Positions 1,369 to 42,261 of a stretch of 64,000 nt of DNA are shown piece by piece (the first letter of the stretch is position 1; each line of letters opens with the position of its first letter). Location: assembly GCA_965224085.1 (NCBI GenBank), contig CBDCYI010000004.1:1664001-1728000 (forward strand). Direction: 5' to 3'. The notes beneath the pieces are model-generated. The model was not told where the DNA came from. It did no database searches and saw only the letters and a program-made list of their open reading frames with translations. Position numbers and translations under genes: made by a program. Source of the stretch: Candidatus Marinacidobacterales bacterium (GTDB taxonomy: Bacteria; Acidobacteriota; Vicinamibacteria; Marinacidobacterales; SMYC01).

Positions 1369-4300
1369 ATGAAGCCCCCCATCGCCGTGGTCGGTATGGG
1401 CGGGATTTTTCCCGGAGCGCCGGACCTCGATCGCTTTTGGGCCAACATCGCCGCCGGCGTGGATGCTTCACGGGAAGTGCCTCCCGATCGCTGGGTTCTG
1501 GATTCCGCTCGGGCTCATGACCCTGAAGTCGGCGCAGCGGACAAGGTGTACTCCACTAGAGGATGCTTTGTTGAGGACTTCCATCTGGACATGCGCGATC
1601 TGGATCTGGATCCAGATGTCGTTGCCGCGCTCGATCCTCTCTTTCACTTGGCGCTCCACGCTTGTCGGCAGGCCGTTGAAGACGCTGGGCTTGGCAAGGG
1701 TAGCCGCGAGCGCGTCGGCGTCGTTATCGGGAACATTGCCCTGCCCACCGACAGCTCTTCGAACATAGCGCGGGAGATCCTCGGCCGAACTTTTGACGAG
1801 AGCACCGGCAACCGGATGGCGTCCGGAGAGCTCGGCCGCACCCATCCTCTCAATCGCTATGTCGCGGGTCTCCCTGCAGGGGTGATGGCCAAAGCCCTGG
1901 GGCTCGGTGGCGGAAGCTGCACGTTGGACGCCGCGTGTGCCTCGTCGCTCTACGCTCTGAAGCTCGCTTCGGATGATCTGATCTCCGGGCGCTCGGACGC
2001 CATGGTCGCCGGGGGGGTGTCTCGTACCAACTGTCTCTATACTCAAATGGGGTTCTCCCAGCTGCGTGCCCTTTCCCCTTCCGGTCGCTGCTCGCCGTTC
2101 GATCGCACGGCCGACGGCCTCGTCGTGGGAGAAGGCGCCGGGATGTTGGTTCTCAAACGCCTGAGCGATGCGCTCAGGGACGGAGACCACATTCACGGCG
2201 TCATCACGGGCATCGGTCTTTCCAACGACGTGGAAGGCAAGCTTCTGGCGCCGAGCACCGAGGGACAGCTCAGGGCCATGCGGCCGGCCTATGAGCAGTC
2301 GGGTTGGTCACCGCAGGATGTCGATCTCATCGAGTGCCACGCCACCGGCACACCGGTGGGCGACGCGGTTGAGCTCGAGAGCTTGAAAAAGCTCTGGGCC
2401 GGGCAGGATGGGCCGTGCGTTATCGGCGGTGTGAAGTCCAACGTGGGACATCTGCTCACTGGGGCCGGCGCCGCGGGATTCATCAAAGTTCTTTTGGCGA
2501 TGAAGGCGCGGACCCTTCCGCCCACGGCCAACTTCTCCCGAGCCGGATCGAAAATGGATCTCGAGGCGAGCCCTTTCAAAGTGCTCGCCGAGGCGCAGCC
2601 CTGGGAGACGCGGGATAGAGCGACTCCGCGCCGCGCCGCCGTAAGCGCTTTCGGCTTTGGCGGCATCAACGCCCACGTGTTGGTCGAGGAATGGACGGGA
2701 AGCATTGAGGATAGCAGCCCTGTCGAAACGCCGGTGGTGCGCGGAGACGCGCCGGTGGCGATCGTCGGCATGGACGCTCACTTCGGATCGATCGCATCCC
2801 TCACGGCCTTCGCGGAGCAGGTGCTCGGCGACGAACGTCGGGATCCGCAGAAGAACGGTTTATGGTGGGGCGTTCAGGAGTCTTCCTGGTTCAAGGACCG
2901 TGGACTCTCGGCAGCTGACTTCAAAGGCCACTTCATGGGCGAGCTCTCCCTGCCCCTCGACCGGTTTCGGATACCTCCGTTGGAGCTCGAGGACATGCTT
3001 CCCCAGCAGTCGTTGATGCTCGCCGTCGCCAAGGGCGCCATGGACGATGCGGGTCTTGGCTCCGAAGAGAAACTCTCGACCGGGGTCTTTGTCGGCATCG
3101 GGTTGGACCTCAACACGACGAACTTCAACTTCCGATGGTCGGTGCTCGCTTCGGAGAAGGCGGAGCGAAACGCTCTTGCCGACGCTGCCGGTCCACCTCT
3201 CACGGCCAACCGAACGATGGGTGCGCTGGGTGGCATCGTTGCGAGCCGCTTGGCTCGGGAGTTCCGCATCGGTGGTTCGAGCTTCACTCTGTCCAGCGAG
3301 GAGACCTCGGGCATCAAGGCGCTTCAAGCAGCGGTGCTGGCGCTCTCGACCGGAAGTGTTCATCAGGCCCTCGTGGGAGCGGTGGATCTCGCCGGTGACG
3401 TAAGGGCCGTCTTGGCGGCTCACGAGGCGCGGCCCAAGGGACAGCGTGGGACACCCCTCCTCGGTGAAGGCGCCGCAGCTTTCGTGCTCAAGCGTCTCGA
3501 GGACGCCGAGGCCGACGGTGATCGGATCTACGCAGTGATCAAAGGCTCGGGAAGCGCCACCGGTGGTGGCGTCGAGACAACCGTGCCCACCGATCGTGCC
3601 TATGAGTCGGCGCTCCGCCGAGCGTACGAAGAATCGGGCATCGTCCCCTCCTCCGTGAGCTACATCGAGACCCATGGCAGCGGCATTCCTTGTGAGGATA
3701 GGGCCGAAAAATCCGCCTTAGCTACACATTTTGCTAGACATTTTCAGTCTCTGGTGGAGCGGCCCGCCACGGGTAGCGTCAAGAAAGATATAGGTCACGC
3801 TGGCGCTGCGTCTGGGATGGCATCCCTTACGAAAACCGCGCTCGCGCTCTACAACCGCGTGCTCCCCGGTCCCGCTCGTCCCTGGTTGAGAAACAGGGCC
3901 GAAGGGCCCCGCCGAGCTGGGGTCAGCGGCATGAGTGTCGACGGAAACTGCTGTCATGTCGTGCTGGAAGAGTACGCGCCGGAAAAGTATCACGAGCCTC
4001 TAGGCAGCGCACGAGCTATCGCGCCGACGACCGACGCCCTCTTCGCTATCGAGGCGGATGATGATGCAGGGCTCGCTGCAGAGAGCCGCCGACTCACGGA
4101 CTGGTTGGACTCACAGTCTGCCAACCATGCCGACGACGACGATGCCCGAATACTGGCGGCTCGCTGGCATCACGACAACCCGCTGCAGCCCGCCCGCAAG
4201 CTCGGCCTTGCCGTGGTCGCCGAACGAAGCTCCGACGTCGGCGACCTGCTTCGGGGTGCCGACGAGACACGGATCTTCGAGAGCAAGAAACCCTTAGCGA

Positions 4301-17187: not shown

Positions 17188-17550
17188 GGGCGAATCCTTC
17201 GCTGCGGGGTAAACGCTCCATCGGAACGAGTGCTGTTACATTAACATCAGTTTGTTTCATTCTTCCCTTCCAGAGATTCACGTCGAAACCGTTTTGTTAT
17301 CGCCCGAGGACACCCTACTATACCAATGCTCGGCCAGCGGCTCTACGTCACGGCCAGGGGCTCGTACAATAGGACCCGGGAGCAGGAGTTAACCTATTGA
17401 TAGTTAGGGACTTAGTTGGATTCTGTAACCTATTGAATTGAGGGGGGTTGCGGAGAAAGGCGCTCGGGAGCGCCAGCATCACCGCCATATTTGCCCGGGC
17501 TCAATGAGATTCGGTAGAGCTCACGCCACAGTCGACAAGGCCCTCGATCG

Positions 17551-17991
17551 AGATTCCGGTCGGGAAACTGGGATGTCTGGATCGTTCCGGCCGAAGGCGG
17601 CGAGGCCAGCCAATTCACCGTGGATGCTACGGGTGGCCCCCCGCGCTGGTCCCCCGATGGAGAATGGATATTGTTCGGCTCGGACCGCTCCGGCCGTCGG
17701 GCTCTGTGGCGGGCGCTCGTCGGTGGAGGGGGAGAACCCGAACCCTTGAACGACGAGGGTGAGGTAGCGCGTTGGTCCCGAGACGGCCGGGAGATTTACT
17801 TCCACAAGGCAGGCCACATCTGGTCACTTTCCTGGGATGATCGCAGCGCGCGTCAGCTCGCCGATCTTGACGACAGTGTCAGCCTCGTACGTTTTGGCCT
17901 CGCGACGGACGGCGAATACCTGTATTTCATACTGGTGGATGATGTCGGCGACATTTGGGTCATGGATGTCGTGACGGACGAAAGCGAGTGA
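17551..17991 (+). pseudogene. C-terminal fragment of a TolB/PD40 beta-propeller protein
   Basis: WDVWIVPAEGG, PRWSPDGEW, ARWSRDGREIYF, GDIWVMD; no N-terminus. Confidence 0.7.
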
Positions 17992-18364
17992 TGCTACCAA
18001 TCCAATGGTGTCTACGAGGTTGTCGTTCCGGTGAAGGATCTGGCGCGGGCCGAGTCCTTCTATTGCGGTGTTCTCGGACTCGAAGTTGGGATTCGGGACG
18101 AAGAACGGAGATGGCTTTTTCTACGCGCGGGAGGAACGGCGGGGATGGTTGTGCTCCAGGAAAACAAGGCGGGGTTTCCCAAGACTCATTTCGCGCTCGC
18201 GGTGAACGAGGGCGACATAGACGCCGCAGCATCTACGCTGAGGAAGCAGGGGATCACCGTCAAGGGCCCCATATTGATTGAGTGGATGCCCGCGAAATCC
18301 ATCTACTTTCGCCGATCCCGACGATCACGATTTGGAGCTGTGTGCGCTCATTGAACGACGCTAG
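17991..18364 (+). pseudogene. VOC/glyoxalase family protein with two +1 frameshifts
   Basis: Reconstructs as MLPINGVYEVVVPVKDLARAESFY...HFAL...SIYFADPDDHDLEL after removing one extra C (~18003) and one extra T (~18309). Confidence 0.7.
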
Positions 18365-18446
18365 CAACAGAACCCTCGGCGGAGCCTCCCTACCGTTTGA
18401 CCCCCTCCTCCCAGGCCGCTACATTCCTCTTTAAATAAGGTTACGA

Positions 18447-18516
18447 ATGGCCCTCACTTCGGGAACCCGCCTAGGCCCCTACGAGATCCTCTCTCCAGTC
18501 GGCAAAGGGGGAATGG
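18447..18516 (+). pseudogene. Ser/Thr protein kinase, N-terminal 23 codons (split by IS110 element)
   Basis: MALTSGTRLGPYEILSPVGKGGM; joins in frame to GEVYKAKD at 21156. Confidence 0.92.
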
Positions 18517-18557
18517 ACTCCCCACGCCGGATCAAGAGAAAACGTTCTTCGTAATAG

Positions 18558-19826
18558 TCATCCGCGATTCGCTTTTTTTGTGGGCCACCGGGAGGGGTCG
18601 TAAAGGGTTCCTTGTCGAAGCATCGCAATGGCGATGGGGAGAATGCGGTCCATGACGCCTCTGAGAGCTCTGGCATGGCTGTGGCCTCTGTCACGAAGCC
18701 GGTCGTAGTGTTCTTTGAAGTGGGGGTCGTGCAAAACGGCAGTGCGTGCCCAATGGTGGAGAGCATTATTGAGGGGCAAAGAGCGAGCTCTCCTCATCAG
18801 GATCGTTGGTCGCAACTGACCGCGCTTGCCGCTCTTTTTTGTGACAGGAGCAATGCCGCCGAGAGTCCTGAAGGCGTTGAGATTACGGAGCCGAATGGGG
18901 TCGTGGGCATAGCAGAGCACGGAGGCGAGCACGTAAGCACCGACGCCGGGCAAAGAGGCAAGAATGGCAGGGTCGGAGCAATGCTCGTCGGTTAGTGCTT
19001 GCACGCGCTTGAACCACTTCTCGAGATGCTGGTCGGAGGCACGACGATGTTGTCGAACGAGGAGCAACTGCTGGAGTAGTAGTTGGAGATGCTCGGCGGT
19101 AGCTTGAGTGGTTGCGGTTGCGACCCGGAGAGGTTTTTGTTTGAGGGTATCGAGGATCTTCTCGGGTTTTAGACGTCGGATGCGGTGTTTTTGAGCGAGG
19201 GTCTCAATGGAGTGGCGGCTAAGAGGGTTGGGGCTGGATTCGAAGAAGAGTTTTAGGAGCTCGCAGAAAAAAGCGTCGAGAGCCTTGTCCTTTGGCGCGA
19301 GCGAGACGAGGTGAGGCCAGCAACGAGTAAGGAGTTCTCGGATCTGCGAGCTGAGGGCCACATGGTTTTTGACGAGTTGGTCGCGGGTACTCAGCAACCC
19401 GCGCATAGCGAGGATCTCCGTAGGTGGGAGATGCAAGCGCTGAAAGCGGTGGCCGTCGGTTCTGAGCGAATCGGCGAGAACGAAGGCGTCTCGCCGATCA
19501 TCCTTGGCGCCGCTCATAGAATGCCGGTCGCGGAAACGGTCGACCTGCTTGGGATTGATGGAGAAAATGGCGATGCCGTGGTCAAGAAAGAGCTCGACGA
19601 CGGCCCCATGAGGTTTTTCGATCGCCACCGCGATGCGCTCGGTATCTTGCGAGGTCTCTTCCAAAAGCCAGTCGATGGTTCCCGATAGTCCTTCGCGGCT
19701 ATGGGGGAAGCCTCTCTCCGCCAAGAAGTTACCTTTGGCATCGACCACACTGGCCAAGTGAAGCCATTGACCCAGGTCGATACCGACGAAGAAGTCGTAT
19801 TTGAGTTGATTCATGGAAGAACTCAT
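18558..19826 (-). CDS. IS110-family DEDD recombinase
   Basis: VGIDLG, AIEKP, KDDRRDA (DEDD tetrad), SLPGVG, and APVTKKSGK with the catalytic Ser. Start is 19826 or 19814. Confidence 0.93.
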   Translation of the reverse strand: MSSSMNQLKYDFFVGIDLGQWLHLASVVDAKGNFLAERGFPHSREGLSGTIDWLLEETSQDTERIAVAIEKPHGAVVELFLDHGIAIFSINPKQVDRFRDRHSMSGAKDDRRDAFVLADSLRTDGHRFQRLHLPPTEILAMRGLLSTRDQLVKNHVALSSQIRELLTRCWPHLVSLAPKDKALDAFFCELLKLFFESSPNPLSRHSIETLAQKHRIRRLKPEKILDTLKQKPLRVATATTQATAEHLQLLLQQLLLVRQHRRASDQHLEKWFKRVQALTDEHCSDPAILASLPGVGAYVLASVLCYAHDPIRLRNLNAFRTLGGIAPVTKKSGKRGQLRPTILMRRARSLPLNNALHHWARTAVLHDPHFKEHYDRLRDRGHSHARALRGVMDRILPIAIAMLRQGTLYDPSRWPTKKANRG

Positions 19827-19837
19827 TTCCGCCAGCG

Positions 19838-20020
19838 CATGTGATGTTTCATCGGCCCCTGTACTGGCGCTCGAAGCGCAACTCCCCACTGGATGTCCAT
19901 CACAAAAGAATTGCCGGCACGCATGTCCATTCCTGGCGCTAGGAGCGCAGGGCGACGTATGGCGTTGCCGGCAAGCTGCTGACGAAATCGAAAATAGTCC
20001 AAGCTCATCGTGATATTTGC
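19838..20020 (-). ncRNA. Predicted bridge RNA (target-binding loop then donor-binding loop)
   Basis: Two guide-UGCGC-loop-GCGCCA-guide units whose guides match the insertion target and the circle junction; closing stems visible. RNA ends uncertain. Confidence 0.85.
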
Positions 20021-20021
20021 T

Positions 20022-20438
20022 CTACCATGGCAATCGGAGTTGTCGCGCGATGCCACGAGTTCGTGCTCGGTTTTTTCTCGGTAGTTTCGGGCGAAGCACG
20101 TCCGAGAGTTTTTCTCGAATGTAAAGAACATAAGGCGGGTCTAGATATTGACTTTGCACTTCCTGGAGCACAGGTGAAAAATAACGAAGGGAGCGAATGG
20201 GCTGCAGTGGCTCCTCATGTTCTTGTAGCTCCCTACGAGCGCAACCCAGAAGTAGGGCACACTCGAATTCGTGTAACGGGACTCCTTGGCGGTAGAGCTG
20301 CGTCGCGATGAAGCGGTCGTCGCGCCGTGGCCGCTCAGGTGTGTTCGGAATGGAAAGATAGAGGTCCAAAATCGTCCGGACGTAATTGTTTTCTGTCAGA
20401 GCATCGCTCGTGAGCGGTTCATTACCCAGCTTCGACAT
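20022..20438 (-). CDS. Hypothetical protein (IS110 cargo ORF B, IRSLRYF motif)
   Basis: 138 aa, GGAGG RBS, overlaps ORF A by 17 nt. Confidence 0.75.
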   Translation of the reverse strand: MSKLGNEPLTSDALTENNYVRTILDLYLSIPNTPERPRRDDRFIATQLYRQGVPLHEFECALLLGCARRELQEHEEPLQPIRSLRYFSPVLQEVQSQYLDPPYVLYIREKLSDVLRPKLPRKNRARTRGIARQLRLPW

Positions 20439-20835
20439 CCTTTAGCCTCCCGCGTCGGCCGCAGATACAGCATTTGGCATATCTGATACTGTCAATCTTC
20501 GTTTTCATTGAATGAGCCATCGGGCCACTAGCTTGAATTTCACGAACTCCTAGACTGCCAGAATTACTGGGGTGAATGAACCCTTGCTCCGTCACTATTT
20601 TCGCCGCCTGGCGTAGACGATAATTCTGTTGCCGAGCCGCGTGGAGTTTTCGTGAGTTGAAACCTTTCTGGTAATTTCGGTTATTTTCGCGCTGGTTCTC
20701 TCGCCGGGTTTCGTCACGGCAGGTTGGACCGCAGTAGCACTGTCCCTGGTAACATGACTTGCAGATGAAGAAAGGCATCCCACAGCTTTTGTTGCGGCAG
20801 AAAAGCCGGAGAAGAACGACAGGTTTGGTGGCCAT
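20422..20835 (-). CDS. Cys-rich putative zinc-binding protein (IS110 cargo ORF A)
   Basis: CRNKSC..ICKSC..QCYCGPTC, then an Arg/Gln-rich helix and C-terminal CCICG. ATG 20835 chosen. Confidence 0.72.
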   Translation of the reverse strand: MATKPVVLLRLFCRNKSCGMPFFICKSCYQGQCYCGPTCRDETRRENQRENNRNYQKGFNSRKLHAARQQNYRLRQAAKIVTEQGFIHPSNSGSLGVREIQASGPMAHSMKTKIDSIRYAKCCICGRRGRLKDVEAG

Positions 20836-21155
20836 TCGGAACTCAGCAAAGTGCTGGACGATGGCCGCCCGGATGTGAGAGGCTAGCTTCAACTTGTAGT
20901 GGAGCGCCTCCTCCGGGGGCCATCCAAACATCAGAGCCCCGGTCGTTTGTAGCGGCTGGGGCTCACTATTGTCGCACAGCAGGTTCACCCTCTTCTTGCC
21001 GGCGCGAGACGATCTGACTGACTCGCGCCAAAGGCGCGAGAGGATGCTGGCCTCGCGCCAGAGGCGCGGGATGAGGCCTTGTACACAGACATTTCCTACC
21101 GACTCTTCCCGCAACACACGCTTTCGCTGCACTGATGCTTCGGCAAGCGTACAGG

Positions 21156-22576
21156 GCGAGGTCTACAAAGCCAAAGACACTCGGCTCGACCGCACAGTGG
21201 CCATCAAAGTCCTCCCCGAGCACCTCGCAGAAAGCCCCGAACGCAAGGCGCGCTTCGAGCGTGAGGCCAAGGCGATTTCGCAGCTCAATCATCCTCACAT
21301 TTGCACCCTTTATGACGTAGGCGAGCAAGACGGGGTCGATTATCTCGTCATGGAGTACATCGAAGGGGAAACGCTGGCGAACGCGCTGAAGCGCGGTGCC
21401 CTGCCACTCGATAAGGCGCTCGAATACGGCATTCAAATCGCGGATGGTCTGGACACGGCGCATCGCGCGGGCATCGTCCACCGAGATCTGAAACCCGCCA
21501 ATGCGATGCTGACGAAGCCCGGTATCAAGCTCTTGGATTTCGGCCTGGCGAGGCTCATCAAAGAAGACGACGGTCCCGAGACATCCGATGCACTTACACG
21601 GCAGAGAGATCTACCAAGGAAGAATCCATCATCGGGACGCTTCAGTACATGGCTCCCGAACAGCTGGAACGGAGGCCGGCGGATGCGCGGACAGACATCT
21701 TCGCTATGGGCGTTGTGCTGTACGAGATGGTTACCGGAAACAAGGCGTTTGCGGGCGAAAGCCAGGCGAGCTTGATCGGCGCTATCTTAAAAGACGATCC
21801 GCCGTCCCTGTCTGCGTTCTCCCCGATGTCGCCTCCGGCGCTGGACCATGTCGTCAAGACGTGCCTCGCCAAAGATCCCGACGAGCGATGCCAGTCAGCG
21901 GGCGAGGTGGAACGCAACTTGAAGTGGATCCGCGACGCCGGAGCCGATGCCAAAGTGTCTGCTCCAACGGGTGTTACTCGACGCGGGTTCTGGTCGCTTT
22001 GTCGACGTACTCCTGGGCGCCGCGCTCGCGACGGCTGTCACGGCCCTTGTCGTCATTGCGCTCATTCGGCCCGACGCACCGCACGTATCTCGCTTAGCTA
22101 TATCCGCTCCGCTCGGGCAACCCATTTCTATGTCGAATTGGAACGTGGACTTGGCGATCTCACCGGACGGCAGCCGGATCGTCTACGTTGGCCAAATCGA
22201 GACAGGAGAACGACAGCTCTTCATTCGTCGTTTGGATCAATACGAACCTGAAGCTCTAGACGGAACGGGTCCTGACCCTCGGAATCCGTTTTTCTCGCCC
22301 GACGGATCGTGGGTGGGGTATGTTGAGGACGTCCAGCCTCGGCGCCTGATGAGGGTCTCCACCCTGGGCGGTCCGCCACTTGTCATCGGTGCGGGCGTCT
22401 TCGTGTGGGGTGCCAGCTGGGGCGCGGACGACAAAACATCATCTTCGCCGAGCGAGGGCGCCTCCTTCGCGTCTCGGCCAGCGGTGGCGAGCCGGAGATT
22501 CTGGCGGCCGCGGATGGGCTCTTCTACTCCTGGCCGGACGTGTTGCCCGGACACTCAACGACAAAAACGACGCTAG
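21156..22576 (+). pseudogene. Ser/Thr kinase + TM + TolB-like propeller, remainder (frameshifted, truncated)
   Basis: VAIKVL, HRDLKPAN, DFGLA, YMAPEQ, ISPDG; frameshifts near 21613, ~21995 and ~22435. Confidence 0.88.
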
Positions 22577-22772
22577 TGGCGTGTGTCCGGTCCCTCTAAA
22601 CGCTTGATACGTGACGACAACGTCGAGAAGTGCCTTAGTGTCGAGCCCATCCGAGGACTTAAAATCCTCGGCATGAATCACAACAAGGCGACCGGGAAGC
22701 ACTTCGAGTCTTTTCTCCTCATTACTTGCTGCTCCACTTCGTGGTCCGCGACCTTCTCTGCTAGAATACTGC

Positions 22773-24638
22773 GTGCTCGAGTCGCTCACGAAACTCACGC
22801 CGCTCGTCTGTTTGGCAGTTGCACTCACCGGTTGCCGCGGAGAGTCCAACGAGGCGCCCTACGACTTTATAGGTCGCGTCGACGAAGCCCACTTAGCACT
22901 CGAGGACGTCACGACGAGCGGGATGGAACGGCTACTCACGCACGCCTTCACATTTCGTAGCGAGACGAGACGCGCGCTCGCGGCTCCCTTCGCGGCTCAC
23001 ATCTCGTTCGAGGTCCGCGTCCCGCGCAATGCCGCGCTCCGCTTTGCCTACGGCGCGTCGACGCTCGATCGGCCCAACCTGCTCACGGCGACCGCCTTTC
23101 AAGTGCTCGTGGACGACGGCGATGGCGACGAGCGCGTGTTCTCGGAAACGTTGCGCCGTCCTGAAGCGAATCGTTGGTTCCCGCGGGACGTCGACTTGTT
23201 GCGCTTCGCCGACAAGACCGTTCGTCTCACCTTCGCCACTGGGCGCGTGGAGGGCAAGCGTCCTCGTGCGGAGCAGCAGATGCTCCCGGTTTGGGGCAAT
23301 CCGGTCCTGTTAGACCGCTCGGCGGTGTCGGAAAAGCCGGACATCGTTTTGGTATCAATCGATTGCTTGCGGGCCGACCACGTAGGTGCGTACGGATATT
23401 CGAGGGAGACGACCCCGAACCTCGACGCGTTCGCGGGGGAGGCGACGCTCTTCGAGACGGCCATCGCGGCCTCCTCCTATACGCTGCCCACACACGCCGC
23501 TATGCTGACGGGGCTTCCCCCATCGCTCCACGGCGCCATCCTCGGACGGGCCATAGCACCGTCGGTCCCTTACACGCCCGAGTCTTTGTCGCGTGCCGGG
23601 TACCGAACCACGGGCCTGGTGACGGCGCCTTTTCTGGCTCGCCACTACGGCTTTCATCGCGGATTTCACACGTATCGCGCGACGGGAGGCCGGGCGGCGT
23701 CGATCGTTGACCGGACGCTCGAGCTTTTCGAGGAAGGCCGGGGCCAGCCGCAGTTTTTCTTCCTACACCTGTTCAATCTTCACCGGCCGTACTCGCCGCC
23801 AGCAGCCTATCGCACACGCTTCGGTGAGCGTCCAGACAATATCACCGAGATTAACGATCGCATCAAGATGCGCCGCCCGCCAACGAGCCGCATACAGGTG
23901 GAGCAAGCGATGGCGCTCTACGATGGGGAGCTCGCCTATGTGGACGATGAGCTGGTGCGTTTGTTCGACGCACTGCGAAACGCCGGTATCTGGGAGAACG
24001 CGCTCGTGATCGTCACCGCCGATCACGGAGAAGCCTTCTACGAACATGAAGATTGGGACCACGCGCGGCCGTGGATTCACGACACGCCTGGGCTCTACGA
24101 AGAGATCGTGCACGTGCCGCTCATCGTCAAGTGGCCGGGACAGCGGAGCGGACGGAGGGTTCGATCGCTGGTCAGCCAGATGGACGTTTCGCCGACGATC
24201 TTGGAAGCGGCGGGGATCGAGACGGAGACGCTTTGGGCCGCAGGTTTGCGCCGCTTTTTCGACGACGAGGCTGGACGCGACGAGCCGTCCCGCAACACGA
24301 TTTCCGAGTTCGTTTCGGAGCGTCCCGACCGCGACGCTGGTCTGCAGATCGCCTTGCGCAGCCAGGACGCCAAATACATCGCTACCTTCCGCGCGGATAC
24401 GTTGGCCGAGCTCCGCGGAGCCGCTCCCGTGCGCCACGAGCTCTACGACCTTCGCGACGACCCGGGAGAGCTACGCAATCTACTCGAGGGCGACGATGTC
24501 GTCCCGAGCGCGTTCAGCGCGGCGCTCAGAGGCTACTTGCGAGCGACGCAGGAGCTCGCTCCGGCCTCCGAAGGCGACGCGATTCTTGACGAAAAGGCAT
24601 TGGAGGAGCTGCGCTCTCTCGGCTATATCGAGCAGTAG
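22773..24638 (+). CDS. Sulfatase-like (alkaline phosphatase superfamily) probable lipoprotein
   Basis: LTGC lipobox, IDCLRADH, TPNLD, SYTLPTH, ADHGE, ELYDLRDDPGE. Confidence 0.85.
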   Translation: MLESLTKLTPLVCLAVALTGCRGESNEAPYDFIGRVDEAHLALEDVTTSGMERLLTHAFTFRSETRRALAAPFAAHISFEVRVPRNAALRFAYGASTLDRPNLLTATAFQVLVDDGDGDERVFSETLRRPEANRWFPRDVDLLRFADKTVRLTFATGRVEGKRPRAEQQMLPVWGNPVLLDRSAVSEKPDIVLVSIDCLRADHVGAYGYSRETTPNLDAFAGEATLFETAIAASSYTLPTHAAMLTGLPPSLHGAILGRAIAPSVPYTPESLSRAGYRTTGLVTAPFLARHYGFHRGFHTYRATGGRAASIVDRTLELFEEGRGQPQFFFLHLFNLHRPYSPPAAYRTRFGERPDNITEINDRIKMRRPPTSRIQVEQAMALYDGELAYVDDELVRLFDALRNAGIWENALVIVTADHGEAFYEHEDWDHARPWIHDTPGLYEEIVHVPLIVKWPGQRSGRRVRSLVSQMDVSPTILEAAGIETETLWAAGLRRFFDDEAGRDEPSRNTISEFVSERPDRDAGLQIALRSQDAKYIATFRADTLAELRGAAPVRHELYDLRDDPGELRNLLEGDDVVPSAFSAALRGYLRATQELAPASEGDAILDEKALEELRSLGYIEQ

Positions 24639-38879: not shown

Positions 38880-39637
38880 CGAATGCGCACGGCGGCTCTT
38901 GAGGGAAGATCCTTTCACGAGCACGCACACCGCACCATCATGGAGCTCTATCAGAAACAAGGTCGGCCCGAGCGCGCGATCGAACAGTTCGAGCGCTACC
39001 GAAGAGTGCTACGCGAGCAGCTGAACGTCGAGCCGTCGCCTGAGCTCGTTTTGATGCGCACCCGCATTCGATCCGGGCGACGACACTCATCCTCAACCGA
39101 GCCGCGGACGCCTGACGCGCTTCGTGCGGAGTGGAACCGAGCGCTCGCAAGCGATCGCTGGCACGAGCTTGCGGATCCTATGGACGCCGTGACCGAATCC
39201 TTCGATATTCGTGGCCGTTTCGAGTAGGGCGCCTCTCTGTTGAGCGCCGCCATCGCTGCGCTGCCGGATGGCGACCCGCTCGTGGGCAAGCTTCTGATCC
39301 GGCGGGGGACTCTAGAAGTCTCGAGAGGCTGCCTCGTCTCTGCGCGCGACGCGCTCGTGCGCGGGCTCGTTCAGGTGCGCCGTCGCGGCGAGCTTCGTGA
39401 GTCGGCTATCGGTTTCAATCGACTCGGCTATGTCGCTTTCGCGCTCGGCCGGCGGGACGAAGCGTTTCGCTCGCTCAGGCGAAGCATCGCGATGTTTCGC
39501 GACCTGAGAGATCATACCGGTCTCGCATGGTCGCTCAACGTTGTCGGGCACTTGAACGTCGAGGCGGGTTTGATCTCGCGAGCACGTGCGCTCCTCGAAG
39601 AAAGTCTCGAGCTCGCCTCCGAGCTCGAACAGTTCGC
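38880..39637 (+). pseudogene. BTAD/TPR transcriptional regulator remnant
   Basis: HEHAHRTIMELY..GR..AIEQF..L.EQLNVEPS; in-frame TAG at 39225; TPR-like LAWSLNVVG; cut by IS5 end. Confidence 0.7.
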
Positions 39638-39791
39638 TGCCTTGGTGCACAACTCCGATAGAGGCCGAGAGCTCGCTTGGCCCCGACTCCCATCATCCGA
39701 TCATCTCGCTATCAGGCATCCCGAGCGCCGTCATGGTGTTGAGAATCTTGCACCCGATCCTTGCCTCGACTCTCTGTGCCGCCAACCCTCT
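39638..39791 (-). mobile_element. Right-end fragment of the IS5 element also found at 42798-43884
   Basis: Reverse complement of ~43731-43884 including TIR TGCCTTGGTGCACAACTC. Confidence 0.9.
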
Positions 39792-40400
39792 GGTCGCACC
39801 CGCAACCACTCAAGCTACCGCCGAGCATCTCCAACTACTACTCCAGCAGTTGCTCCTCGTTCGACAACATCGTCGTGCCTCCGACCAGCATCTCGAGAAG
39901 TGGTTCAAGCGCGTGCAAGCACTAACCGACGAGCATTGCTCCGACCCTGCCATTCTTGCCTCTTTGCCCGGCGTCGGTGCTTACGTGCTCGCCTCCGTGC
40001 TCTGCTATGCCCACGACCCCATTCGGCTCCGTAATCTCAACGCCTTCAGGACTCTCGGCGGCATTGCTCCTGTCACAAAAAAGAGCGGCAAGCGCGGTCA
40101 GTTGCGACCAACGATCCTGATGAGGAGAGCTCGCTCTTTGCCCCTCAATAATGCTCTCCACCATTGGGCACGCACTGCCGTTTTGCACGACCCCCACTTC
40201 AAAGAACACTACGACCGGCTTCGTGACAGAGGCCACAGCCATGCCAGAGCTCTCAGAGGCGTCATGGACCGCATTCTCCCCATCGCCATTGCGATGCTTC
40301 GACAAGGAACCCTTTACGACCCCTCCCGGTGGCCCACAAAAAAAGCGAATCGCGGATGACTATTACGAAGAACGTTTTCTCTTGATCCGGCGTGGGGAGT
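39792..40400 (+). mobile_element. Second, 5'-truncated copy of the IS110 element inserted in rnr
   Basis: Near-identical to the reverse complement of 18517-~19125; ends GTGGGGAGT followed by CC core. Confidence 0.93.
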
Positions 40401-42261
40401 CCATTTTGTCCGCCATGAAACGGACTTTCTTCCAATCAACAAGCTCGCGCTCCGCCTCTTCCGCGCGCCGCTCGGTAATCGAGCTGTGCTCGGCGATGTC
40501 TTCGAGGCCGTCTTCCGAGGGCTCTTCGGCGCGCCCCAGCTTTCGCAAGAGACGATGCACGACCAGATCCGGGTAGCGGCGAATGGGCGACGTGACATGG
40601 GTGTAAGACGATGTCGCGAGCGCGTAGTGGCCCGCCTGCTCGGCCGAGTAGACGGCTTTTTTCATCGTGCGCAACATCGCGAAAGAGATGAGCCGCTCCT
40701 CCGGCTTGCCTTCGATACGCCGGAGAAGTTTTTGAAACGCTTTGGACGAGATGGACTCCGACGGCGCCCGCAAACGATAGCCGAGCCCGAGAATGAAGTC
40801 CTCGAATTGCTCGACGCGATCCTCATCCGGAGCTTCGTGCAAACGGTGGATAGAAGGAACATCTCGATTCGAAAGGAAGCGCGCGACCTCTTCATTCGCG
40901 AGCAGCATGAACTCTTCGATCAGGCGATGAGCGACGTTGCGCTCCGCAACGCAAATGTCGACGATCGCACCTTCCTCATCGAGAACGACTTCCGCTTCCG
41001 GCCGGTCGAAGTCGATCGATCCTCGAGCGCCACGACGCGCGCGAAGAATCTGGTAGAGCGCGAGCATTTTCTCGAACTCGGGCAGAAGTGAGGCATATTC
41101 GCGCCTGAGGTCCTCGCCGTCCTCGGAGAGAATCCCAAAGACGTTCGTATAAGTCATGCGCGCGGCGCTTCGAATGACGCCGTCGGTAAAGCGGCTTCGA
41201 ACGACCTCACCGTTCGGCGAGACTTCGATGAAAACGCTCTGCACGAGGCGGTCCACGCCGGGCTTCAAGCTGCAGATGCCGTTCGACAGGCGTTCGGGGA
41301 GCATCGGGACGGCGCGGTCGGGGAAATAGACGGAGGTCCCGCGACGGAACGCTTCGCGATCGAGGAGCGTTCCGTCGCGTACATAATGCGAGACATCCGC
41401 GATGTGCACACCGAGCCGGTAATGGCCGTTATCGAGAAGCTCCACTTCGACCGCATCATCGAAATCGCGCGCCGTCTCCCCGTCGATAGTGACGATGAGC
41501 CGTTTGCGAAAGTCTTCCCTTCCTTCGAGCGCGTCGTCACCTAGCTCGGCCTCGACCGACTCGGCCTCCGCCAAGACATCTTCAGGGAAGACCTCCGCAA
41601 TGCCGTGCTTCGCGAGCACGACCCGCACATCGACGCCCGGCTCGTCGACGCTGCCGAGAACTTGGATAATCCGCCCCATCGGTGCGCGGTAAGGCGACGG
41701 AAAGCGCGTGAGCTCGACGACAACCATATCGCCTGCCGCGGCACCCATCAGATCGTTCGCAGGCAGGAAGACTTCGTAAAGAAGACGCGCATCGAAGGGA
41801 ACGACCCGCGTCCCGCCGGAGTCGATCTCGAGACGACCGACGAGCGACGTCGTCCGCCGCTCCAAGACATCGACGATGCGTCCTTCGGGCCGACCTTCCC
41901 GCCCGCGCCGGTCGATGTGGACGAGCACCCGATCACCGTGAAGCGCCTCGCCGAGATGGCCTCCGGCGACATAGACGTCTCCTTGCCCGCGCTCCACCGG
42001 AACGACGAAGCCGAACCCGCCGCGCTTGACCTCGAGCCGTCCAGCGACGAGATCCATCTTCTCTGGAAGCCCAATCCGATCCGCTCGCGTGCGCGCAAGC
42101 TCCCCTTTGGCGATCATGTCTTCGATGACACGCTGCGCCTCCACCCGCGCCTCGCCTTTTACCCGGAGCTGTTTGAGGAGATCTTTCTCGGTGGTAGGCC
42201 GGCCGAGCTTCCGAAGGCGTTCGCGAATCTTCTCGCGGATCGAGTCTGAATCGAGTGTCAT
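40363..42261 (-). CDS. rnr: Ribonuclease R, C-terminally truncated by IS110 (S1 domain lost)
   Basis: GGFGFV, TIDGETARDFDDA, HIADVSHYV, IEEFMLLAN, TSPIRRYPDL. After FMADKM the frame reads into the IS end. Confidence 0.93.
   Translation of the reverse strand: MTLDSDSIREKIRERLRKLGRPTTEKDLLKQLRVKGEARVEAQRVIEDMIAKGELARTRADRIGLPEKMDLVAGRLEVKRGGFGFVVPVERGQGDVYVAGGHLGEALHGDRVLVHIDRRGREGRPEGRIVDVLERRTTSLVGRLEIDSGGTRVVPFDARLLYEVFLPANDLMGAAAGDMVVVELTRFPSPYRAPMGRIIQVLGSVDEPGVDVRVVLAKHGIAEVFPEDVLAEAESVEAELGDDALEGREDFRKRLIVTIDGETARDFDDAVEVELLDNGHYRLGVHIADVSHYVRDGTLLDREAFRRGTSVYFPDRAVPMLPERLSNGICSLKPGVDRLVQSVFIEVSPNGEVVRSRFTDGVIRSAARMTYTNVFGILSEDGEDLRREYASLLPEFEKMLALYQILRARRGARGSIDFDRPEAEVVLDEEGAIVDICVAERNVAHRLIEEFMLLANEEVARFLSNRDVPSIHRLHEAPDEDRVEQFEDFILGLGYRLRAPSESISSKAFQKLLRRIEGKPEERLISFAMLRTMKKAVYSAEQAGHYALATSSYTHVTSPIRRYPDLVVHRLLRKLGRAEEPSEDGLEDIAEHSSITERRAEEAERELVDWKKVRFMADKMDSPRRIKRKRSS

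Follow-up and report, generated by a model that had tools for sequence, protein, structure and literature searches.

The 64,000-nucleotide (nt) window analysed here, a stretch of contig CBDCYI010000004.1 from Candidatus Marinacidobacterales bacterium (Acidobacteriota) to which all coordinates refer, contains on its minus strand an IS110-family insertion element that interrupts a Ser/Thr kinase gene. The element carries a recombinase gene, P0001, and, just upstream of it, a conserved structured region (19833-19981) which very probably encodes a functional or recently functional IS110-family bridge RNA. The system is not a new kind but a bridge RNA of known kind; the subfamily to which it belongs is large and apparently uncharacterised, and is marked by a core of CC and a left donor guide that is shifted in register. 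Specific to the present lineage are two additions, a landing site in protein-coding sequence and an accessory gene pair. The main features are as follows.

18515..21155, minus strand: whole IS110-family element, delimited by where the genomic copies L001-L005, L009 and L010 cease to be identical and by the junction sequences
18558..19814, minus strand: IS110-family recombinase gene P0001, 418 residues (Pfam, NCBIfam, alignment to IS621)
19833..19981, minus strand: conserved core of the putative bridge RNA, closed by a basal helix CAGC 19981-19978 / GCUG 19836-19833 (alignments, structure counts, covariance-model matches)

The recombinase

P0001 matches the Pfam families DEDD_Tnp_IS110 (PF01548; 2.8e-31) and Transposase_20 (PF02371; 1.1e-11), and scores 162.9 bits against the NCBIfam model NF033542, 'IS110 family RNA-guided transposase', for which the cut-off is 140. 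The protein combines a DEDD RuvC-like N-terminal domain with a serine-bearing Tnp C-terminal domain: residues D13, E66, D105/D106/D109 and S328 are invariant among 25 relatives, and Ser328, located in a KKSGK stretch, is aligned with the YESGS serine stretch of the Tnp domain of IS621. Comparison with solved chains yielded E = 2.2e-7 for IS621 and 2.3e-6 for ISCro4, the alignments covering mostly the Tnp domain. At residues 66-70 (∼19617-19603, minus strand) the catalytic Glu66 is followed by a K-P-H-G motif, of which P68, H69 and G70 are likewise invariant among the 25 relatives. In the weak N-terminal alignment this motif faces A-T-G of IS621, and we consider it a candidate determinant of the CC core.

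Element limits and junctions

The source genome contains 16 matches to the element region. Four are full-length copies at 99.8-100% identity (the window copy, L002, L003 and L004); L005, L009 and L010/L012 are copies with internal deletions or truncations, and three further copies (L006, L007, L008) represent a variant of 90% identity. Since identity between copies stops at two fixed places, the element must end there, and since these limits enclose 2.64 kb (counting one CC at each end, a single CC belonging to the element), it is far longer than recombinase gene and RNA together. The ends are composed as follows.

21154..21155, minus strand: left copy of the CC core (host flank, CC, TGTAC in all 7 left junctions examined)
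21146..21153, minus strand: left-end terminus TGTAC, the right donor, which would be read by the right donor guide; overlaps a -10-like TACGCT (21151-21146) with a putative promoter role (TACNNT in relatives)
18515..18535, minus strand: right-end terminus, comprising a -35-like TTGATC (18535-18530) with a putative promoter role, the left donor GTGGGGAGT (18525-18517) and CC (18516-18515)

In all 7 left junctions examined the order is host, CC, then TGTACGCTTGCC, and the right junctions of the own-genome copies read GGCGTGGGGAGT, CC, then host. For the window copy this corresponds on the left side to host ACCTCGC (21162-21156), core CC (21155-21154) and element TGTAC (21153-21149), and on the right side to element GTGGGGAGT (18525-18517), CC (18516-18515) and host ATTCC (18514-18510). 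The end repeat comprises exactly two bases, CC, at all junctions: CC is preceded by C in each of the 7 left junctions and by T at the right side, and followed by T at the left side and by A at the right side. In the 64-kb window the 11-mer GTGGGGAGTCC has just two occurrences, at 18515-18525 and 40392-40402; both represent right element ends, and the donor match described below therefore exceeds what is expected by chance. The circle junction to which we refer is the predicted one, deduced from the two ends. A search of the assembly for a circle or tandem junction (up to 2 mismatches) gave no match, which is to be expected of an assembly and does not count against circles.

Layout of the bridge RNA and its guides

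Within the conserved core two internal loops are recognized, each being closed by an outer stem and containing an inner stem-loop flanked by a left and a right guide.

19911..19974, minus strand: target-binding loop module; outer stem 19974-19966 / 19919-19911, extended by CGC 19964-19962 / GCG 19922-19920; inner stem-loop 19948-19936
19950..19958, minus strand: left target guide ACGUCGC plus CC (4-6 of 7 bases plus core match the host left flanks in 7 own-genome insertions)
19925..19933, minus strand: right target guide GGAAUGG (19933-19927) plus handshake AC (19926-19925); its reverse complement CC-ATTCC is the right flank in 3/6 full own copies, and it covaries in relatives
19841..19903, minus strand: donor-binding loop module; outer stem GTGATG 19903-19898 / CATCAC 19846-19841; inner stem-loop 19879-19867
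19881..19889, minus strand: left donor guide GUGGGGAGU, stopping short of the core (same sequence as the final 9 nt of the right end; covaries in L110 and L121)
19856..19864, minus strand: right donor guide GUACAGG (19864-19858) plus handshake GG (19857-19856); its reverse complement CC-TGTAC is the left end

The target loop is closed by the strands TTGCCGGCA (19974-19966) and TGCCGGCAA (19919-19911) and is composed of ACGTCGCCC (19958-19950), TGCGCT (19949-19944), CCT (19943-19941), AGCGC (19940-19936), CA (19935-19934) and GGAATGG (19933-19927). These strings, and those of the donor loop, had been assigned in a preliminary description of the locus, and each is present on the minus strand of 19700-20200 at the coordinates given there. 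That description had likewise noted a 13/14 match of the target guides to the kinase site ACCTCGC-CC-ATTCC, the site predicted from the guides being ACGTCGC-CC-ATTCC, and a match of the donor guides to the joined ends; both hold when the ends are fixed independently from the other genomic copies, with the donor guides matching the element ends at 9/9 bases on the left and 7/7 on the right (core included). For the other own-genome insertions, the left flanks match the left target guide at 5, 6, 4, 6, 4 and 5 of 7 bases, and the right flanks of the other copies with the window RNA match the right target guide at 5, 5, 3, 4, 4 and 3 of 5.

The four guides exhibit a regular pattern, in that the 5' guide sides are sense to the left half-sites and the 3' sides are antisense to the core and the right half-sites. 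Three of the guides pair with the CC core, namely the left target guide through its own CC and the right target and right donor guides through GG; the left donor guide does not reach it. The register differs between the two loops: the left target guide, 9 nt long, has the core CC as its final two bases, and the left donor guide, also 9 nt long, stops immediately ahead of the core and is followed by U and the inner stem. After the right target guide, the handshake bases AC are complementary to GT at donor positions 6-7, so that both bases pair; of the handshake GG after the right donor guide only the base facing position 7 pairs with the target GC. The RNA lies upstream of the recombinase gene and, unusually, 1,172 nt from the left terminus; its conserved core ends 19 nt ahead of the start codon at 19814. 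The right end is just 42 nt long (18557-18516).

Covariation among relatives

A protein search gave 5181 proteins at E ≤ 1e-40 among 8000 scored, and scans of GTDB genomes and metagenome contigs yielded 160 loci, 18 of which encode proteins with 54-92% identity to P0001. A close set of 20 sequences, each comprising the 150 nt ahead of the recombinase gene, could be aligned from CAGC...GCCGGCAACGCC to CAUCAC. In this set the five-helix structure pairs 94.9% of the cells, compared with 15.6-45.4% for slid controls, and compensatory changes are found in 6 pairs, a count which none of 500 shuffles reached. Consistently, RNAalifold recovers both stems of the target loop and the outer stem of the donor loop unaided.

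To reach further, a covariance model (R1) was built from the close set and run on 100 of the 160 loci, with proteins that are ∼40% identical; it was used in place of a strict text pattern for the donor loop, which caught 46 of the 160 loci. R1 matched a full or near-full RNA 92 times, at least once in 91 of the 100 loci and always on the recombinase strand. In the resulting distant set (91 distinct sequences) 89.4% of the cells are paired, compared with 32-42% for slid controls, where the alignment is fitted to the model and thus favours the structure. Compensatory changes occur in 31 of 34 pairs (450 cells), and were again reached in 0/500 shuffles. The four failing pairs are U-A pairs drawn at stem edges; the U that follows each of the left guides is therefore a linker, which is also its role in IS621.

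The guides could be parsed in 90 of the 92 model matches, with two being left out for guide segments that are too short. Among these 90 rows the target guides vary widely and the donor guides are nearly constant. The right end was located in 64 rows, with CC coming next in 63 of them and GC in one; among the close relatives CC follows in all 13 whose right end was found. For the 63 distant elements, the right target guide matches the right flank at 5/5 bases in 43, 4/5 in 18 and 3/5 in 2 cases, that is, at a mean of 4.65/5 compared with 1.93 for shuffled flanks. The mean left-target match is 3.96/7 compared with 2.27, a value that understates the match since the comparison uses a fixed offset from the inner stem and some rows are one base off; in both comparisons none of 2000 shuffles reached the observed mean. 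The right target guide terminates in GG in 89/90 rows, AC follows it in 75/90, and in 71/90 the right donor guide is followed by a base that complements target position 7.

Where the donor guides do change, matching changes are found in the element ends, with L118 and the 90% variant as exceptions (see below). L110 combines the left donor guide GUGGGAAGU with the right end GTGGGAAGT, and L121 combines GUGGGGUGU with GTGGGGTGT; in L110 an inserted C lengthens the left donor guide onto the first core base. In L110 and L120 the right donor guide is GUAUAGG and the left end is CC-TATAC. At the single variable position of the right target guide in the close relatives, an exact match is found for 8 of 13 external elements (shuffled mean 4.15; p ∼0.03) and for 14 of 23 when all insertions, which are not independent, are counted (6.4 shuffled; p ∼0.001). 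The 90% variant carries the target guides ACUUCGC-CC and GGUAUGG, which predict the right flank ATACC; its copies have ATCCC, ATACC and ATACC. From this natural covariation of guides and targets, we infer that the system would be reprogrammable.

Since distant relatives share both the CC core and the guide logic, these are properties of a large subfamily. The preliminary description had proposed a core that is CC rather than CT and a 2-nt difference in register between left donor and left target guide. Core and offset are real, the former at all junctions examined here and the latter generally in the subfamily, and both characterise the subfamily rather than this locus.

The target site in kinase genes

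18447..18516, plus strand: 5' part of the interrupted Ser/Thr kinase gene, MALTSGTRLGPYEILSPVGKGGM (translation)
21156..21640, plus strand: continuation of the interrupted kinase gene, GEVYKAKD...HRDLKPAN...DFG (Pfam Pkinase, 9e-32)

Based on the Pkinase match and the translations of the flanks, the landing site is the sequence coding for the glycine loop, G-G-M-G-E/D-V, of Ser/Thr kinase genes. The motif (L/I)GxGGM is encoded in 12/12 of the external right flanks that are long enough to be read, and G(E/V)VY in 6/6 of the external left flanks. The element is always oriented antisense to the kinase gene, and the three variable guide bases coincide with the third positions of the codons GGN-ATG-GGN-GAN-GT, which encode G-M-G-E/D-V on the opposite strand. 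In the source genome, 6 of 10 insertions lie in kinase-like sequence, and 13 empty ACNTCNCCCATNCC sites are present, compared with none for the reversed control; the right half ATTCC specified by the window RNA is absent from all 13.

The interrupted kinase gene (21158-23200, plus strand) goes out of frame ∼150 codons past the insertion, where low-complexity sequence and stops are encountered; kinase sequence, followed by beta-propeller-like sequence, persists in other frames of the same interval. This loss of frame may reflect decay after inactivation or an assembly error.

Putative junction promoter and proposed mechanism

Across the predicted circle junction, the two ends would juxtapose TTGATC and TACGCT at a distance of 17 nt, that is, the pattern of a split promoter. 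Among the relatives, TTGAC[N] is found at the corresponding place in 81 of 132 right ends, and at least 97 of the 132 left ends have TACNNT, likewise 17 nt apart across the core; the pattern is common to the whole CC-core subfamily. It matches the split junction promoters that have been described for IS621 and other IS110/IS1111 elements (PMC11208160, PMC11187229). Terminator-like sites in 18400-21300 number 4, with 3.6 expected.

By analogy with IS621 (PMC11208160, PMC11208158), the element would be excised as a circle, its right and left ends meeting over a single CC and thereby building the promoter TTGATC, 17 nt, TACGCT. Transcription from this junction promoter would then proceed through ORF-A and ORF-B (two open reading frames, ORFs, described below), then the bridge RNA and finally P0001. 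A tetramer of the recombinase, with its DEDD RuvC-like domain and a Tnp domain contributing Ser328, would hold the RNA, whose two loops would bring together the circle junction and a kinase glycine-loop site. Strand exchange would take place at CC and might be aided by the handshake bases, with AC pairing with the donor GT and the G after the right donor guide pairing with the target C at position 7. Because the RNA is located 1,172 nt inside the left end and behind two genes, it would have to be produced either within a long transcript or by an internal promoter that escaped recognition.

Alternative explanations

Several observations weigh against a functional bridge RNA of the kind proposed or against details of its action. 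An Rfam scan of 17500-21500 (E up to 1) returned no family, where it was not established whether Rfam 15 has a bridge-RNA family. The preliminary description had suggested folding and covariation as a joint check: covariation across relatives supports the stems, as detailed above, and the single-sequence fold of 19815-20040 does not add to this, with an insignificant z = -1.77 (12 of 200 shuffles are as stable) and the guides being partly paired; it was thus not used as support. RNAalifold, applied to the close set, gives another fold inside the donor loop. Among the donor guides there are two exceptions to covariation, that is, L118, where the guide GUAGGGAGU faces the right end GTGGGGAGT, and the 90% variant, where the first guide base differs (AUGGGGAGU vs GTGGGGAGT). 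The two variable bases of the left target guide track the flanks poorly, with left flanks matching at only 4-6 of 7. Moreover, 4 of the 10 own-genome insertions (L002, L004, L010 and the truncated copy L011) are found outside kinase-like sequence, at look-alike sites, which is what recognition of bases rather than genes would yield. Contigs from RNA libraries (four runs, four studies) cover the element only in part, including 19855-19951, and represent relatives at 90-95% identity: X15 (with a guessed RNA label) and X16 contribute many short contigs over much of the element, X17 one contig and X19 two. Such contigs carry no ends, strand or level and may reflect DNA carry-over, and uncovered parts do not mean silence. 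Finally, P0001 is only remotely similar to the two solved recombinases, so that mechanistic details of IS621 may not transfer.

One could suppose that the structured region is a mere leader of the recombinase mRNA, acting as an attenuator or translational regulator, and that its resemblance to the element ends has no guiding role. The location directly upstream of the start codon at 19814, with the basal helix ending 19 nt before it, would suit a leader, and older work, as cited in PMC11208160, had suggested a regulatory role of the non-coding ends in recombinase expression. A leader, however, has no reason to hold host-flank sequence, and yet the right target guide follows each element's own flanks (4.65/5 vs 1.93 when shuffled); nor would the donor guides be expected to change along with the element ends. 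We thus regard this explanation as extremely improbable. It is hardly more credible that the matches act as DNA, with the internal copies of the ends being recombinase binding sites, i.e., subterminal repeats, and no RNA being involved. The direct repeat GTGGGGAGT at 19889-19881 and in the right end, as well as CCTGTAC, which is inverted at 19858-19864 and in the left end, could be read in this manner, but the compensatory changes in 31/34 pairs of the five helices point to a folded single strand as the object of selection, host and not element DNA is what the target loop matches, and the four guides and the handshake bases have the sense/antisense pattern known from the solved complex of IS621 (PMC11208158).

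A further alternative accepts a genuine bridge RNA by descent and proposes that the lineage is no longer mobile in this way, the 1.1-kb insertion having separated the RNA functionally from its junction promoter, with copies spreading by other means such as homologous recombination or duplication. The distance between left end and RNA, 1,172 nt here, ranges from 14 to 184 nt and is mostly 45-57 nt in 78 distant relatives; a scan of 18400-21300 for sigma-70-like promoters recognised no site; and several copies are deleted or truncated. On the other hand, four full copies (≥99.8%) occupy different sites, each flanked by CC and guide-matching sequence, the relatives with long left ends reside in different kinase genes of other organisms with guides tuned to them, and guide, stem, recombinase and both ORFs are conserved. 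Loss of RNA-guided mobility is thus very unlikely, and a bridge RNA that is, or was until recently, functional accounts best for the evidence collected so far.

Comparison with known systems and significance

The closest well-characterised system is IS621 of E. coli (structures 8WT6-8WT9), with which the window element shares (i) a recombinase composed of DEDD/RuvC-like and Tnp(Ser) domains, (ii) an RNA upstream of the recombinase gene and inside the left end, (iii) two internal loops with the same sense/antisense guide logic and a dinucleotide core at both ends, and (iv) handshake bases after the right guides. The -35-like sequence in the right end and the -10-like sequence in the left end, which circle formation would bring together, resemble the split promoter of IS621. 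In the target loop the segments measure 3-9-1-stem-loop-2-9, with the last 9 comprising guide and handshake, and these lengths also agree with those given for IS621 (PMC11208158). The IS621 guides cover positions 1-9 (left target), 1-8 (left donor) and 8-11 (right target), and each right guide is followed by two handshake bases which, once strands have been exchanged, pair with the other DNA at positions 6-7 (PMC11208158).

The differences from IS621 are likewise clear. The core is CC here and CT in IS621 and its close orthologues, which places the element outside the IS621-like subgroup but not outside the family. The left donor guide pairs with 9 bases that precede the core, whereas positions 1-8 of IS621 include the first core base; since the IS621 left donor guide already lacks the second core base (PMC11208158), the offset found here is a larger version, by one base, of a known asymmetry. 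The right target guide comprises 7 nt (the right guides pairing with positions 8-14), compared with 4 in wild-type IS621, and the protein has 418 residues compared with 326-328. The catalytic Glu is followed by K-P-H-G instead of A-T-G, in a part where the alignment is weak; the target is coding sequence instead of a repetitive extragenic palindromic (REP) element; and two ORFs are located between left end and RNA. The basal helix encloses both loops here; to our knowledge, the IS621 RNA is devoid of an enclosing basal helix.

Other characterised members of the family offer further points of comparison. ISCro4/IS622 (bioRxiv 10.1101/2025.05.14.653916; structure 9T56), described as belonging to the same family with the same two-loop logic and handshake guides, differs in that such elements are close relatives of IS621 with CT (or GT) cores; they have been used for rearrangement of the human genome. 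For ISEc21 and IS1111 elements, work on seekRNA reports that a non-coding region is needed in cis or in trans for circle formation and targeted insertion, and that in IS110-type elements this region lies upstream of tnp, with a junction promoter and no true target duplication (PMC11187229), all of which resembles the present case. IS1111 elements have their RNA downstream of tnp and possess subterminal inverted repeats of 7-17 bp (PMC11187229), neither of which is found here.

According to published work, cores other than CT are allowed in the IS110 family. IS621 worked less well with non-CT cores, and the characterised systems (IS621, IS622/ISCro4) prefer CT (PMC11208160); in IS621 the T at the second core position hardly ever varies, and it is the main-chain amide of G63 that reads it (PMC11208158). 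In the open literature we found no paper that pairs IS110 with a 'CC core', where the supplementary tables of large surveys may already cover the subfamily, and none on kinase genes as IS110 targets, with IS110, bridge RNA and protein kinase being mentioned together only in what appear to be general reviews.

Bridge recombinases are under development as programmable tools for the insertion, deletion and inversion of DNA. A large natural CC-core subfamily with 7-nt right guides and a shifted donor guide would widen the range of addressable sites, and the comparison of K-P-H-G with A-T-G would provide a test of whether main-chain contacts next to the catalytic Glu explain the invariant T. The landing site is itself of interest: the most conserved codons of a paralogous kinase family serve as a multi-copy landing pad, the drift of the guide RNA is limited to codon third positions, and the element disables kinase genes one at a time.

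ORF-A and ORF-B in the left end

20422..20835, minus strand: ORF-A, 137 residues, cysteine-rich (relatives start at MA(A/T)KPVV)
20022..20438, minus strand: ORF-B, 138 residues (third-position bias; alignment of relatives)

ORF-A has 6 invariant Cys, an invariant His66 and a C-terminal CxxCG. A longer reading of this first ORF (P0002, 236 residues, from 21132) is probably not real: its first 99 codons have no codon-position bias, with mismatches at positions 1/2/3 of 10/18/12, 16/20/15 and 24/21/21, and in relatives the corresponding stretch is in another frame. For ORF-B, the mismatches at codon positions 1/2/3 are, for example, 16/6/24 and 46/34/79; it is found in at least 14 of the relatives' loci, and its family comprises 1269 database proteins, with no name or Pfam domain among the 120 matches listed. 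Neither ORF has a significant match in Pfam, NCBIfam, PADLOC or PHROGs, and the ESM Atlas yielded unnamed clusters only. The best hits of profile searches against the PDB were PRDM9 zinc fingers for ORF-A (E = 0.039) and winged-helix response regulators for ORF-B (E = 0.39), neither being significant.

Both ORFs are absent from the relatives at ∼40% protein identity. Among 401 sampled genomes of the phylum, profiles of ORF-B match 22 and those of ORF-A 25, often with 10-11 copies per genome; these tallies include the source genome and an unpublished genome (G067), whose loci L205 and L231 were otherwise left out. Elsewhere in Acidobacteriota (e.g., L191, L195 and L220) the order is ORF-A, istA (Mu-transpos_C_2), istB (IstB_IS21, 2.4e-56), ORF-B, with the pair being 2.2-2.7 kb apart, and none of the 27 ORF-A/ORF-B loci examined contains a P0001-like gene. 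Judged by its sequence, then, the IS110 lineage of the window carries a gene pair that is otherwise found in IS21 elements. The IS21 elements of other Acidobacteriota have this same pair, whose homologues occur there in many copies per genome, in common with the present element; they differ by an unrelated DDE transposase with an AAA+ helper and have no bridge RNA. This sharing invites the question whether insertion sequences, which tend to be deemed minimal, may have accessory proteins.

It is tempting to speculate, if only as a tentative and rather doubtful proposal, that the module of ORF-A, a small protein of zinc-binding type, and ORF-B might have been taken into the left end, between junction promoter and bridge RNA, as a portable helper or regulator of unrelated transposases. 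The RNA might then be released from, or act within, a polycistronic transcript made only from the circle, and the recombinase of the subfamily might be specific for CC, with the left donor guide leaving the bottom-strand core unpaired.

Truncated and deleted copies

39792..40405, plus strand: second copy of the element, 5'-truncated and comprising the last 614 nt at 100% identity; right end GTGGGGAGT-CC at 40392-40402

The truncated copy terminates in GTGGGGAGT-CC-ATTTT. At its break, host GGTCGCAcCCGCAACC is to be compared with element GGTCGCAaCCGCAACC, so that the junction falls within a short stretch of near-identity. Judged by eye from ORF translations, the gene cut by this copy (38883-40034, plus strand) resembles a regulator of the BTAD/TPR type.

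Elsewhere in the source genome, L010/L012 have kept both element ends together with the two ORFs and the RNA and have lost most of the recombinase gene (window equivalents 19822-18798). L005 is devoid of 20334-20507, and L008, a copy of the 90% variant, begins just before the RNA, immediately after kinase coding sequence. Deletion derivatives of this kind (L010/L012, L005, L009, L008) could be mobilisable in trans. At L007, a solo right-end fragment of 35 nt (…TTGATCCGGCGTGGGGAGT-CC-ATTCC; plus strand, ∼3851-3885) is located ∼330 nt from the variant copy and is possibly the remnant of an excision or of a deleted copy.

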